Shown here: positions 2,589 through 9,221 of the stretch, piece after piece
Numbering within the stretch: the first letter of the stretch is position 1
Layout of the letters: each line of letters opens with the position of its first letter
Origin: Cyanobacteria bacterium P01_D01_bin.156
Lineage (GTDB): Bacteria > Cyanobacteriota > Cyanobacteriia > Phormidesmidales > Phormidesmidaceae
Length of the DNA: 20,083 nucleotides
Assembly: GCA_039024555.1 (NCBI GenBank)
Contig: JBCCQQ010000088.1
Span: 1-20,083, forward strand
Direction: 5' to 3'
Program-made: the position numbers and the translations under genes
The notes under the pieces: generated by a model
Told to the model about the DNA's origin: nothing
What the model saw: the letters and a program-made list of their open reading frames with translations, nothing else
Databases searched by the model: none

Positions 2589-3320
2589 ATGACATCTACG
2601 TTAAAGGATTCTCGTTATACCGAAGAACAGATCAAGGCTTGGTTACGGGGGCTGTTGGCCATTGCTTGGGCTGATGGTGAGTTTGATGAACAGGAAAAAG
2701 AGCTGATCCACGCCATGATGGATGAGGATTTTGCGCCTGGATTAGATTTTGAGACCTTCGAGCCGATTAGCCCTACGGAACTGGCGACTGTTCTAAAACC
2801 GAATCCGGTGGCGGCGGAAAACTTTTTGCGAATGGCGGTGATGGTTGCGATCTCAGACGGTATCTACTCCGCTGCCGAAGACAAAATCCTCATGGCATTC
2901 TGTCAGGCCCTAAATCTAGATACCGCTGTCCTACAGTCCTTAGAATCCACACTATATAATCTGCATCAGGTTAAAGAAGAGGTTCAACCCGGTAGCAGCG
3001 GTACTGATGCTGTCTCGAATGCTGCGGCCAGTCCACTGACACCTCCTGCACCTAAGGAAGGCCCTGATCCAATCAAGCCCATGCGGGACTGGCTCGATCA
3101 GCTAGAGGTACAAGATGCCCGTCTGGCAAGATTTGTATGCAAAATGATTCCATCCCAATGTCCCTTTGAGCGGGATGTCACACTCTTTGGTAAAAAAGTA
3201 GTCCATATTCCCCCCATGTGTAAGCTTAATCCGCTTTACGAACAGTTGGTGGGTCTGCGGTTTCGGGCCTTGTCCCATTTAGCTGATGATTTAGGCGAAG
3301 ACGTTACTCCTTATTTATAA
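2589..3320 (+). CDS. TerB-like N-terminal domain plus 'Mo-dependent nitrogenase C-terminal' (Mo-nitro_C) domain protein; function unknown, not a nitrogenase subunit
   Basis: WLRGLLAIAWADG and VAISDG (TerB-like); CKMIPSQCPFERD...HIPPMCKLNPLYEQLVGLRFRAL (Mo-nitro_C signature). Confidence 0.88.
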   Translation: MTSTLKDSRYTEEQIKAWLRGLLAIAWADGEFDEQEKELIHAMMDEDFAPGLDFETFEPISPTELATVLKPNPVAAENFLRMAVMVAISDGIYSAAEDKILMAFCQALNLDTAVLQSLESTLYNLHQVKEEVQPGSSGTDAVSNAAASPLTPPAPKEGPDPIKPMRDWLDQLEVQDARLARFVCKMIPSQCPFERDVTLFGKKVVHIPPMCKLNPLYEQLVGLRFRALSHLADDLGEDVTPYL

Positions 3321-3412: not shown

Positions 3413-5230
3413 GTGGGTCATCGAGAACATTTAACAACTGAAGTTTTAGTGGTTGGGGGTGGCACTGGTGGGACCGCTGCCGCTATTCAGGCAGCCCAGC
3501 TAGGTGCCCAAGTGTTGTTGGTTAGCGAATGGCCTTGGCTCGGAGGCATGTTGACATCCGCAGGGGTAACTGCACCCGATGGCAATGAACTAGCGGCATT
3601 CCAAACCGGTTTGTGGGGAGCTTTTTTACGAGAGTTAGAGCGGCGACAGCCAGGGGGCTTGCACAATGGCTGGGTCAGTTTCTTTACCTACGAACCTGCT
3701 GTGGGGGCAGCGATTTTTGCTGATTGGGTGGCGGCATTGCCCAATTTGAATTGGCGCTGGGGGCATCAACCAAGAGCGGTTTGCAAAACTGGAAACCAAA
3801 TCACAGGTGTGGAATTTGAACAGTTTTCTGTAGATGCTCACATTACTCTCGATGCGACAGAACTGGGTGATTTGTTGGCGCTTGGAGATGTCCCTCATCG
3901 CTGGGGTTGGGAAAGCCAAGATCAGTGGCAGGAGCCTAGTGCACCTAAATCATTAACAGATCCCCAGGACCTGCTAGCGCCTGCCATCAAGACCTATCCG
4001 GTGCAGTCTCCCACATGGGTTGTGGTCATGCAGGACTACGGCGCTGGAGAAACGGCACTAAAAATTCCTGCGGCAGGAGACAGTTCTGCTTTTACAGGTG
4101 CTTGGCAGGGGTATGGGCCAGAAAAATTTCTAAATTATGGACGATTGCCCGGTAATCGCTTCATGATTAATTGGCCCCAACGGGGCAATGACTATGGTGT
4201 GGGGTTGCATCGTTTAATTGAATCTGATGCGGTCCGCTATGACTATTGGCAAGAGGCTAAATCCTATAGTCAACAGTTTGCTCATTTTATTCAGGCTGAG
4301 CTGGGTGATCGCTACGGGTTGGCTCAAGGGATATTTCCGACCTTAGACGGGACCCCCGGCGGCGGGGCGTTTGCTCTGTATCCCTACTATCGCGAAAGTC
4401 GTCGGCTAGTGGGGCTAACGACGGTCAGTGAGCGGGATATTTTGCCAGTAGCTGGAGGACAGGTGGCCCCACTGCCGGTTAATGATGATGGCGTGGTAGA
4501 TGCGATCGCAATCGGCAACTATCCCAATGATCACCACTACCCTGGTTTTGACATGCCCCTGGCCCCTAAAGCCATTCACTGGGGAGGACGTTGGACCGGT
4601 ACTCCATTTACCATCCCTTACCGTGCGCTAGTATCGGCCACGGTGGACGGTCTTTTGGTGTGTGATAAAAATATTTCAGTGACCCACATTGCCAATGGTG
4701 CAACTCGTCTACAGCCTGTAGTTTTAAATATTGGCCAGGCAGCGGGGGCAGCGGCAGCGTTATGCATACAAAAAAACTGTCAGCCTCGAGAACTATCCGT
4801 GTTCTCCCTACAGAAAACTCTGCTCAAAGCTCAATCACCGGCAACGGTTGTCCCCTGTTTTGATTTACTGCCATCAACGCCCCAGTGGCTGGAGCAACAA
4901 CAAACCTATCTGCAACAACCAGAAACCTATCCCTCCAGTGGGTTCGTTGTTGCCTTAGGTCAAGCTCCTATGCCCCAAGAAACCTCTGATAGGTTAGCCC
5001 GTAGCACCCTTCGCCTAACGGGGCATTATGAAAAAGGACAGAATGATGCTCATTGGTTGGTGACAGACACTCATACGTGGGGAATAGTTGCTGTTTCCCC
5101 TACTTCTGTATATCAGTTGGAACAAATGAAGTGCAATAGTTCTGTATCAGTAACTGGGATCCCTAATTCAGGAGGCAATTGGATTGTGCTGCGGACGATT
5201 ATGGCTAGTGATAGTCTGAAGTCAATTTAA
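3413..5230 (+). CDS. FAD-dependent oxidoreductase
   Basis: Rossmann motif VLVVGGGTGGTAAAIQAA, LGGMLTSAG, DATELGDL, YYRESRRL, IPYRALV and ANGATRLQP..GQAAG. GTG start. Confidence 0.9.
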   Translation: MGHREHLTTEVLVVGGGTGGTAAAIQAAQLGAQVLLVSEWPWLGGMLTSAGVTAPDGNELAAFQTGLWGAFLRELERRQPGGLHNGWVSFFTYEPAVGAAIFADWVAALPNLNWRWGHQPRAVCKTGNQITGVEFEQFSVDAHITLDATELGDLLALGDVPHRWGWESQDQWQEPSAPKSLTDPQDLLAPAIKTYPVQSPTWVVVMQDYGAGETALKIPAAGDSSAFTGAWQGYGPEKFLNYGRLPGNRFMINWPQRGNDYGVGLHRLIESDAVRYDYWQEAKSYSQQFAHFIQAELGDRYGLAQGIFPTLDGTPGGGAFALYPYYRESRRLVGLTTVSERDILPVAGGQVAPLPVNDDGVVDAIAIGNYPNDHHYPGFDMPLAPKAIHWGGRWTGTPFTIPYRALVSATVDGLLVCDKNISVTHIANGATRLQPVVLNIGQAAGAAAALCIQKNCQPRELSVFSLQKTLLKAQSPATVVPCFDLLPSTPQWLEQQQTYLQQPETYPSSGFVVALGQAPMPQETSDRLARSTLRLTGHYEKGQNDAHWLVTDTHTWGIVAVSPTSVYQLEQMKCNSSVSVTGIPNSGGNWIVLRTIMASDSLKSI

Positions 5231-5449
5231 AGTAAACATATTTCGAAATGTAACGATATTCACTTTCATCTCACATCAGGAAACCGAGCTAGATATTTCC
5301 CAGAAAAATACGGTGACTTTTTTGAGTGCTTTAATCTATTTAAGATAGAAGATCCGTATTGTTGACCACAGATTTTCACATAGTTTTTCCTGAGTCATTT
5401 GTCAAATCTCTGTAGTCAGAAAGTAGCAATACTACTTATTCTCTGACCC

Positions 5450-5698
5450 ATGAGACTTTCCTTATCAGCCCTTTCAATTGCTATTGTCGTTCCCTTTTTA
5501 GGGCTAGCTACGTTTTCTGACTTTGCAACAGCAGATCGGGGTAGCGGTCGTCTAACAAACGAGATGGCAGACCGCGGTAGTGGACGTTTAGATTCTAATC
5601 AACCTCAGCAAGCAAGCTATGACACAGTTGCTTACCGTGGTAGTGGACGCATTAATCAAGACGAAGCTTATCGTGGTAGCGGTCGTTTATCTGCTTAA
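5450..5698 (+). CDS. patX: PatX-type RGSGR signalling peptide precursor (signal peptide plus four RGSGR motifs)
   Basis: 82 aa. Hydrophobic N-terminus ending A-T-A. RGSGR at aa 30, 42, 63 and 75. Lies between the FAD oxidoreductase and hetR, a context consistent with patX. Confidence 0.88.
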   Translation: MRLSLSALSIAIVVPFLGLATFSDFATADRGSGRLTNEMADRGSGRLDSNQPQQASYDTVAYRGSGRINQDEAYRGSGRLSA

Positions 5699-6080: not shown

Positions 6081-7016
<936 letters not shown>

Positions 7017-7187: not shown

Positions 7188-7439
7188 CTAGAGAGTATTC
7201 CAGGCTTGGGTCAAAATCTCTCTGAGTAAATGCCGACTTTTAGGGTCTAGAAGGGCATCGTCGACCATTAATTCAGTAATCACATCTTCTAAAGTTTGCC
7301 CCTGAGCTCGTGCAGTTTCAATGACGTGCACAATCGCTGTGGCAATATTAGCTTCGCTAACGGCCTTGTCTGCAGGGGAGGTTTCTAAAACGGTCTTTAT
7401 AGTTGACGGGCTCATTTTATGTATGTGGGTAAGATGCAA
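7188..7439 (-). CDS. Small cyanobacterial hypothetical protein (start may be 7415)
   Basis: Amphipathic helical ORF with AIVHVIETARAQGQTLED...DDALLD...QAW, resembling a conserved small cyanobacterial family as I recall it. Ends at the hairpin pair. Confidence 0.7.
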   Translation of the reverse strand: MHLTHIHKMSPSTIKTVLETSPADKAVSEANIATAIVHVIETARAQGQTLEDVITELMVDDALLDPKSRHLLREILTQAWNTL

Positions 7440-7655: not shown

Positions 7656-8984
7656 TCAAGTCTGAGAGGTCGGAGGCTGTTTTTTGAGTCGAGGAAAATT
7701 CGGTAGATCCACAGCAGCTAACGACCCAATTCGCTTTTGAGGCTTTAGGGGATTAACCAGGGGAGATGGACTACTGAGAGCAGTGACAGCAGGCAAATAA
7801 GTGCTATCAGCTGTGCTGGTTATTTTGGCCGCCTGAACTCTGGCAAGAATTTGAGCTGCTTTAGGAGACAAGACAGAAGAAGATGTTGACATGTCTTCCT
7901 CTGCTGAGTTGTCAATGACTGGATTTGAAGAATCTTGGTCTGTGTCACTCCAAGGAGAGGGCTCAGTAATCTCTGGAGAGGTTTCTGAAGAGCTCGTCTG
8001 TGTGTTGATAGAACCAGGGGCCTCTGCTGGACCCATGACTCGGGCTAAGTCGTGCCATAGCTGATCCTCTGCTTCTGTTGCCATGGTAGAGGTATTGGTT
8101 GGCTGAGAACCGGCCTTAACCCCTCGAATCATGGATTCAAGCTGAGGGTCAAGAGTGTTACGACCCAAGGCCGCTTCCCAAGGCTGAATCTCATCCGTTT
8201 TTGGCATAGTGAGCCCCTGAAGCGATGGTTCAGTATCTGTGCTAGGTGCGCCTGAGGACACATTAAGACATTTTTCTAGGGCAACTTTAAACTGTAGGGT
8301 GTAGCGTTGCTGTCTCTGTAGGCGGGCTCTTAAATCTCGACAGCTGGCGTTAGCTTGTAACAGTGCCTGTGATTGTTCCGTAGCTTGCTGAACTAAAACG
8401 GTGTGCTCTGCTTCTAGTTGATTGGCGTGTTCTTTTACCGCTGCGAGCTCTGTCTGCAGACTTTCATTTAAGACATGCTGATGCTGTAACGACTGATTGC
8501 TTTGCTCCAGTTCAGTCACTAACTGAACAATTTCACGATCACCTGAGTTGCCTGAACGGTCAATTTCAGCTTGAAGTGCAGATTGAGAGCGTTCTAAAGA
8601 TTCTTCTAGTTCTGACACTTTAGCCAGCAGCACGTCATTGCATTCGTTTAAGTCCCTTACCAGGTTTAGGAGCTCAGTTTCGCGCTGCCTGCTTTGTTCC
8701 GCTGATGTATCGGAGGAAAGAGTGCTGTCATCTAGGTGTTGGCTAGAAGAATCCATAGCAGTAGTCCGCAAAGAAGAAGAAGGCTCTGGGATTTGATCGG
8801 TGGCGATGGTGCCGGGGAAATGGATAGTTTGCCAGCTACTGTCGGTGAATTGCTCAACAGGTAGCTGAGCCCCTTGAGACGAACTGTCAGAGGCGTTGTT
8901 TGCTTGGTCAGGAAGACTATTGTGAGAATTGGTTCGGTTGAACATTCTGGAGCACCGCAGTAATTGAGGCGGAGAAGATTGCAT
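7656..8984 (-). CDS. Coiled-coil-rich hypothetical protein with disordered Ser/Pro-rich flanks
   Basis: Long heptad-rich core (RETELLNLVRDLNECND...LRARLQRQQRYTLQFKVALEKCL) and C-terminal SPSPLV.PLKP.KR..SLAAVDLPNFP. GGAGGAG precedes the ATG at 8984; the ORF is open to 9074. Confidence 0.8.
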   Translation of the reverse strand: MQSSPPQLLRCSRMFNRTNSHNSLPDQANNASDSSSQGAQLPVEQFTDSSWQTIHFPGTIATDQIPEPSSSLRTTAMDSSSQHLDDSTLSSDTSAEQSRQRETELLNLVRDLNECNDVLLAKVSELEESLERSQSALQAEIDRSGNSGDREIVQLVTELEQSNQSLQHQHVLNESLQTELAAVKEHANQLEAEHTVLVQQATEQSQALLQANASCRDLRARLQRQQRYTLQFKVALEKCLNVSSGAPSTDTEPSLQGLTMPKTDEIQPWEAALGRNTLDPQLESMIRGVKAGSQPTNTSTMATEAEDQLWHDLARVMGPAEAPGSINTQTSSSETSPEITEPSPWSDTDQDSSNPVIDNSAEEDMSTSSSVLSPKAAQILARVQAAKITSTADSTYLPAVTALSSPSPLVNPLKPQKRIGSLAAVDLPNFPRLKKQPPTSQT

Positions 8985-9221
8985 ATTACGCCAATCTCCT
9001 CCAAGTATTAGCACAGAAAGATTAATTGGTAACAAACAATCTACAGAAAGTTGGGCTTGTGGCCCTCTCGCCATACATTAGGCGCTGCTTGAGCGGCTGC
9101 ATGGAATAGACCATCGTTATTGCCCACTTAAATATAGGTAATGCCCACCCTGTCGATAATCAAATACCAATGCGTCCCTTTTTCACCATGGCAACTGTAT
9201 TAAAAGTTAAAGATTGATTTT

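Follow-up and report, generated by a model that had tools for sequence, protein, structure and literature searches.

The patX gene of a cyanobacterium that very probably lacks heterocysts belongs to a selected, lineage-wide multi-motif variant

Why would a gene directly upstream of hetR encode the RGSGR peptide four times? The question arises from an open reading frame (ORF) at 5450..5698 on the forward strand of contig JBCCQQ010000088.1 from Cyanobacteria bacterium P01_D01_bin.156, within the 20,083-nt stretch of DNA that was analysed (the window). Its translation gives 82 residues with four XRGSGR cassettes, which a motif scan placed on the same strand at 5534..5551 and 5570..5587 (both DRGSGR) and at 5633..5650 and 5669..5686 (both YRGSGR, the last followed by a three-residue non-polar tail). 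The four RGSGR cores lie exactly where the original prediction had put them (5537-5551, 5573-5587, 5636-5650 and 5672-5686, spaced by 12, 21 and 12 aa), and the cassettes follow the order described there, A-D-RGSGR-L twice and then A-Y-RGSGR-I and A-Y-RGSGR-L; the 15-nt motif copies do differ by synonymous changes only, at 1-4 nt per pair. In the six-frame translation of the 6.6-Mb genome, RG[ST]GR was matched 33 times, 4 times inside this ORF and 29 times elsewhere. With only 29 other matches in the genome, four in one short frame are not a matter of chance, and a chance origin of the ORF was rejected on an estimate of ~5e-12 genome-wide for four motifs in one 82-codon frame, assuming independence. 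A profile of 17 homologues matched no second patX copy in the genome, the present gene being its sole match, and none of the 33 six-frame matches pointed to a patS- or hetN-like ORF. Elsewhere in the genome, a 176-aa protein with a signal-peptide-like start (C44:7841-8371, +) contains A-D-RGSGR-V, which agrees with the cassette consensus and may be due to chance, and a dispersed repeat reading RRGSGRK in one frame (C5:147473, C5:150996, C11:83460 and C68:15822) is probably a non-coding or mobile-element repeat.

We are almost certain that the ORF is orthologous to patX, its host being a non-heterocystous filament akin to Leptothoe and Adonisia. Several hallmarks of PatX were found together: a small RG(S/T)GR protein (82 aa, four motifs), a position upstream of hetR, in a slot that holds a single-motif ORF in 66 of 85 loci of other families, and a predicted DIF1 (sigma-HetZ) promoter in a genome that contains hetZ. 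Position, promoter and protein anatomy (a hydrophobic N-terminus and RGSGR) thus bear out the PatX identity originally proposed. The NCBIfam PatX model NF047413 did not match the 82-aa protein; in a sample of 74 of the 162 complete ORFs, its cut-off was reached by 5 of 39 syntenic single-motif proteins and by none of 35 multi-motif proteins, and since few syntenic single-motif proteins pass either, the miss reflects insensitivity of the model outside its seed taxa. The newer Pfam PatX family, PF28278, was found in 14 of the 109 homologue matches of one search, all 14 multi-motif, and in none of the 54 matches of another homologue search; in the 82-aa product itself, no Pfam family was detected at E <= 0.1. 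In the ESM Atlas, PatX clusters ranked first and third (scores 0.86 and 0.85), which we treat as a lead only, and the accompanying structure model (pLDDT 0.32) was disregarded. Two other identities were rejected. PatS is a very short cytoplasmic peptide with one C-terminal ERGSGR, whereas the present product has 82 aa, a hydrophobic N-terminus and four internal motifs, and gave no match to NF047415. HetN has a short-chain dehydrogenase fold with an internal ERGSGR, whereas this protein is only 82 aa long and, as stated, has no Pfam family.

The gene order at the locus is FAD oxidoreductase, patX, hetR. hetR, the presumed target (6087..7016, +; NCBIfam PRK13245, 546.8 bits against a cut-off of 489), begins after a gap of 388 nt, in agreement with the prediction that it lies directly downstream, and it was the only hetR matched in the genome. 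The FAD-dependent oxidoreductase gene (3413..5230, +; PF12831, 325.9 bits) serves as an upstream synteny marker, for which no mechanistic role is claimed: the C-terminal part of the enzyme is encoded upstream in 19 of the 21 genus loci, the remaining two being cut contigs, and likewise in 22 of the 66 single-motif loci of other families. Also in the window, a protein with TerB and a Mo-nitrogenase C-terminal domain is encoded upstream of the patX locus (2589-3320, +), and two ORFs without a family above cut-off converge on hetR (7188-7439 and 7656-9074, both on the reverse strand).

A predicted sigma-HetZ/DIF1-type promoter lies at 5388..5414 (+), with the -35 element TCCTGA at 5388-5393, a 17-nt spacer and the -10 element TGTA at 5411-5414, and a transcription start is predicted near 5424. 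The site has one mismatch to the sigma-HetZ consensus TCCGGA-N16-17-TGNA-N7-9-T (PMC13342950), and TCCTGA is the variant drawn for patX of Leptolyngbya BL0902 (PMC11298460, legend of Fig. S1). Of 163 motif ORFs, 158 have a promoter-like site in the 150 nt preceding them, in most cases 60-63 nt ahead of the ATG and in single- and multi-motif patX genes alike, against a background of 4.1% in 5000 random genome windows; the 57 promoter-like sites found genome-wide are a chance-like number by a rough hand estimate. The position and sequence of the site suggest that sigma-HetZ uses it. Between 5231 and 6110 there was no exact HetR site (GGG-N5-CCC) or NtcA site, and a sigma-70 promoter and terminator scan was uninformative.

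The HetR protein is 91-96% identical to those of named Leptothoe, Adonisia and Leptolyngbya PCC 7375 / Heron Island J, and 74-75% identical to that of Nostoc. With the PfaA/HglE-type and PfaD/HglA-type models, which we take to be heterocyst-glycolipid markers, the 99% complete genome gave nothing above cut-off and no match, respectively, and it contains hetZ and two nifH genes above cut-off (C71:18366-19175 and C59:21895-22704). Because of the absence of a glycolipid-marker match, the two nifH genes, hetZ and the kinship of HetR, the host is very probably a filament without heterocysts, as had been supposed, that could potentially fix nitrogen. Two more hetZ-like genes fall below the HetZ cut-off (C17:21063-22175 and C33:57329-58138), and a TCCTGA-N17-TGTA site lies ~860 nt upstream of the former.

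We examined 182 hetR-upstream loci, hand-picked among the matches listed, over 1.5-2.6 kb where the contig allowed: 97 from the host family, in which 123 genomes at least 90% complete were searched, and 85 from other families. In the host family, 93 of the 97 loci had at least two motifs, two had one and two had none; of the latter, one contig is cut 33 nt before hetR and the other locus is a second hetR copy. In the other families, a single-motif ORF was found in 66 loci, none in range in 17 and a multi-motif ORF in 2. The premise that PatX normally carries one motif therefore fails in the host family, and four motifs are the low end for the genus. This search for ORFs with at least two RGSGR upstream of hetR also showed that the extra motifs are kept in relatives, with 4-9 copies in the 19 complete genus genes (a twentieth is truncated): nine in PCC 7375 and Adonisia turfae CCMR0081 (L075), six in Leptothoe spongobia (L071), five in Leptothoe kymatousa (L077) and four in Heron Island J. 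Two database proteins (P0014 and P0020) have three, and the database holds further multi-motif homologues, one of them named Symploca. A separate expansion was seen in family f14, where genus g114 has 6-8 motifs (3 loci), nine of the ten loci of genus g75 have 1-5 and the tenth has none in range, and a single motif is found in the sister genus g128 (3 loci). At least 7 changes of motif state were counted on a quick HetR tree of 114 loci. A degenerate two-motif DNA pattern run over 401 genomes was discarded, as low-complexity matches dominated and a reversed control was equally frequent. No RG[ST]GR ORF was found within 1.5-2.6 kb upstream of hetR in any of 13 loci of families f10, f17 and f29 (L024, L223-L228, L231-L233 and L283-L285), whose patX may lie elsewhere or have diverged. 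Three longer multi-motif proteins (P0058, P0088 and P0141) have 163-192 aa and 5-9 motifs, and in one of them most cassettes begin with Ala.

In the cassettes of the 19 genus genes, 109 in all, Arg is encoded by each of the four CGN codons and Ser by both AGY codons, and no cassette with 1-2 mismatches turned up when these genes were scanned for them; as the cassettes were located via the motif itself, fully decayed ones escape the count of 109. Ala precedes X in 71 of the 109 cassettes and Ile, Leu or Val follows the motif in 92; the last motif ends 3 residues from the C-terminus in 19/19 genes, 18 of which end in Ala. These conserved flanks and the non-polar tail resemble, and may be, processing signals. 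The first cassette is acidic and the last one begins with Tyr in all 19 genes, an order that may be functional or may have been left by unequal crossing-over between inner repeats. Cassette spacing is 12 aa in 69 of 90 genus intervals and ranges from 9 to 21.

The copies also turn over. Copy number varies from 4 to 9 among species with HetR 91-96% identical, near-perfect and recent repeats occur in L074 and L075, and decayed cassettes are present in P0006, P0014, P0064, P0072, P0076 and L375. At the site of the 21-aa spacing, a DRGSGR cassette is present in each of the three nearest full-length homologues (64-66% identity), and in the DNA alignment to L003 a 12-nt gap accompanied by substitutions falls at 5611..5629 (+). 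The segment is a probable remnant of a fifth cassette, which this gene has probably lost. Selection rather than slippage, as argued originally, is thus a false choice: purifying selection on the motif is upheld, but copy number changes, and a fifth cassette has apparently disappeared here. In several genera, each cassette type has its own constant place although the spacers are unrelated; most g42 loci, for instance, read D-F-Y. Multi-motif patX is a real, selected and lineage-wide variant of a known signalling protein, neither a new system nor unique to this genome.

How the four motifs would act depends on export and processing. The hydrophobic N-terminus (residues 1-28; 5450..5533, +) is a probable Sec signal peptide, with a 12-residue Kyte-Doolittle maximum of 2.55, within the 1.85-2.65 of the 19 genus genes. 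The residues A-T-A do precede the first DRGSGR, as the original prediction had noted for a signal-peptidase site, but the site is a peculiarity of this gene, present in only 1/19 genus genes by a strict rule and 5/19 by a lenient one; a conserved cut exposing DRGSGR was rejected, given that the -3/-1 site before cassette 1 is not conserved in the genus. In Nostoc, the only organism for which export of PatX has been demonstrated, the signal peptide is needed and the S13 peptidase PatP cleaves the protein; when the signal sequence was removed, PatX showed no HetR binding in a two-hybrid assay, and the hexapeptide binds at 88 nM (PMC12756182). The only PatP cut mapped there lies 27 residues upstream of the motif, not at the motif (PMC12756182). 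The present genome contains two S13 peptidase genes of the PatP family, candidates for PatP.

The four-motif patX is best read, we infer, as a precursor that releases several peptides, as originally proposed. That the whole chain applies, from export through cutting into several HetR-inhibiting XRGSGR hexapeptides to a dose set by copy number, seems to us somewhat more probable than otherwise. Repeated duplication of a ~12-residue cassette would have expanded patX into a polyprotein. Sigma-HetZ would transcribe the gene from the TCCTGA-N17-TGTA promoter, the hydrophobic N-terminus would direct the product via Sec to the periplasm, by analogy with Nostoc PatX, and periplasmic peptidases, with PatP as the named candidate, would cut before each X and after each final Arg, giving up to four free XRGSGR hexapeptides. 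These would re-enter cells, bind the HetR hood cleft and release HetR from DNA, steps that were shown in Anabaena and are presumed to apply here. Extra cassettes would raise the dose per precursor while being individually replaceable, and may offset a weaker HetR pocket (E254S).

The structure of HetR with PatS6 bears on this reading. E254 and D256 hold the free N-terminal amine of the peptide and R223 lies near its free carboxyl, the first side chain contacts nothing and has no effect on Anabaena HetR binding, and 7-mers bind worse than the hexapeptide, with an N-terminal extension clashing with a loop (PMC4649674). Because both free peptide ends are engaged and 7-mers bind worse, separate hexapeptides are favoured over an intact multivalent chain, the other option in the original prediction, which conflicts with this structure. 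The suggestion of two kinds of peptide fared unevenly: the acidic-first/Tyr-last order holds in all 19 genus genes, but HetR does not contact the first side chain, and D- and Y-peptides would therefore differ, if at all, in processing, transport or range.

In the cognate HetR, five of the six peptide-binding residues are kept (R223, E253, D256, D270 and D278), and the equivalent of Anabaena Glu254 is Ser261 (6867..6869, +; alignment to 4HRI/3QOD). Ser occupies position 254 in all 21 genus HetRs, with the other five pocket residues kept; E254 is kept in 57/57 Nostoc-type loci. In Anabaena HetR, E254A changes the Kd from 12 to 91 nM, and Ala at D256 or D278 weakens binding 35- to 135-fold (PMC4649674); among the accessible texts, this structure paper was the only one found to deal with E254. 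On the quick HetR tree of the 114 loci with both genes, E254 was lost 5 times. All 11 loci with six or more motifs are without E254, but they represent only two lineages; in f14 the loss of E254 precedes the expansion, whereas in the host family multi-motif genes precede the loss. Multi-motif genes occur in 33 of 76 E254 loci and single-motif genes in 9 of 38 non-E254 loci, and an independent-pair test of E254 loss against at least two or at least five motifs gave p = 1. His stands at the first peptide position in 49/76 E254 loci versus 3/38 others, with 3 supported pairs in the same direction (p = 0.25). Neither association is significant, and both are leads from sequence comparison. A complex prediction for the HetR hood dimer with mature PatX returned no answer (score 0.00) and is evidence neither way. 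In genus g41 (L329-L335), HetR has D256N and D278N in 7/7 loci, yet a 1-2-motif patX is retained. In family f7 (L392-L406), genomes have 2-3 hetR paralogues, and an RGSGR ORF of their own lies upstream in 8 of 15 loci. The first peptide residue tracks HetR position 254, Tyr accompanying Val in 3 loci and Gln or Thr accompanying Glu in 5, which suggests parallel, possibly insulated peptide-HetR pairs.

Three other explanations were weighed against the precursor reading. The peptides could be a secreted signal read by a non-HetR receptor or a transporter-coupled regulator, hetR adjacency then reflecting shared sigma-HetZ control only. This would accord with the one deletion study of a non-heterocystous strain, BL0902, whose transcriptomes indicated that the effects of PatX were 'basically independent of HetR' (PMC11298460), with the loss of E254 from the cognate HetR and with D256N plus D278N in all seven loci of a neighbouring genus. 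However, the BL0902 result is based on 126 shared genes in a bulk transcriptome (PMC11298460), the motif is the exact HetR ligand and the five other pocket residues are kept, and we consider this explanation unlikely. The multivalent chain, whole or partly cut, might still bridge the clefts of a HetR dimer or several dimers, with E254S relaxing the need for a free N-terminus; the predominant 12-aa spacing and the loss of E254, one of the two amine-holding residues, in both lineages with at least six cassettes would fit. Yet the residues that engage the two free ends, D256 and R223, are retained, an N-terminal extension clashes with the HetR loop (PMC4649674), both spacing (9 to 21) and copy number (4 to 9) vary, an exported 54-residue chain would need to re-enter the cytoplasm, and multi-motif genes predate E254S in the host family, which together make bridging quite improbable.

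It is likewise decidedly unlikely that a single cassette matters and that the others are by-products of slippage kept alike by concerted evolution. The range of 4-9 copies at 91-96% HetR identity, the near-perfect repeats of L074/L075, the decayed cassettes and the probable loss of a cassette here all speak for slippage. Nevertheless, none of the 19 complete genus genes falls below four (P0014 and P0020, from the database, have three), the motif stays constant against diverging spacers and synonymous sites, and distinct cassette types hold fixed positions with unrelated spacers in several genera, such as D-F-Y in most g42 loci.

Returning to the precursor reading, a bolder version of it, which we regard as unlikely, would make PatX in the host family a genuine bacterial morphogen in polyprotein form, its number of cassettes and their first residue evolving in step with the HetR pocket. 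Without E254, binding would be weaker or reshaped, the first position would change from His to Tyr, Asp or Glu, and amplification (twice independently to at least six cassettes) would retune the inhibitor dose and thereby lay out a concealed cell-to-cell pattern, for instance of sites of fragmentation or zones of nitrogen fixation, along heterocyst-less filaments. In that case the D- and Y-type peptides, whose net charges are +1 and +2, might not travel equally far or be taken up alike. The role of HetR and PatX in filaments that form no heterocysts is posed as a question in PMC11298460, and multi-copy patX offers a way to test the role of the signal where there are no specialised cells: with a natural series of 1-9 copies and natural HetR pocket variants known as Anabaena mutants, dose and processing are directly testable.

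The findings also correct the published distribution of patX. Table S3 of a 2025 survey (PMC12756182) gives PatX as 0 for Adonisia turfae CCMR0081, Leptothoe spongobia and L. kymatousa, which carry 9-, 6- and 5-motif genes upstream of hetR, and also for Leptolyngbya cf. ectocarpi LEGE 11479 and Nodosilinea nodulosa. For these two, the proteins that bear their names (P0009 and P0038) have 6 and 3 motifs, respectively. Elhai and Khudyakov (2018) reportedly found PatX to be co-extensive with HetR, and strains such as PCC 7375 had been sequenced by 2018, and we would sooner expect than not that their paper or its supplement already shows multi-motif PatX. In the accessible portions of the PatX/RGSGR literature, including PMC7761841, PMC5812504, PMC7377430 and PMC12669612, no description of multi-motif PatX was found; the BL0902 PatX in Fig. 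S1 of PMC11298460 may also be multi-motif.

Among known systems, the closest is PatX itself (Asl2332 of Nostoc PCC 7120; NF047413; PF28278), a small protein with a hydrophobic N-terminus, RG(S/T)GR and a DIF1/sigma-HetZ promoter, and patX of Leptolyngbya BL0902 is likewise reported directly upstream of hetR (PMC11298460). Unlike this known PatX, the present protein has four cassettes, no match to NF047413 and a cognate HetR with S254, and its flanks follow (A/S)-X-RGSGR-(I/L/V), whereas known PatX mostly reads H-RGSGR-(R/stop). PatS and HetN of Anabaena PCC 7120 also yield XRGSGR peptides that bind the HetR hood, but each has one motif and no Sec signal. In Firmicutes, Phr and arbitrium peptides undergo Sec export, extracellular maturation and re-import to act on a cytoplasmic regulator, usually with one peptide per precursor and a TPR receptor; the route proposed here is alike, although the receptor fold is unrelated. 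Yeast alpha-factor, animal neuropeptide polyproteins and multi-core cyanobactin precursors consist of a signal or leader followed by tandem cores with conserved processing flanks. To these the multi-motif PatX is related by analogy only, without homology, and it differs from them in that its product is predicted to be unmodified and its target to be an intracellular transcription factor.
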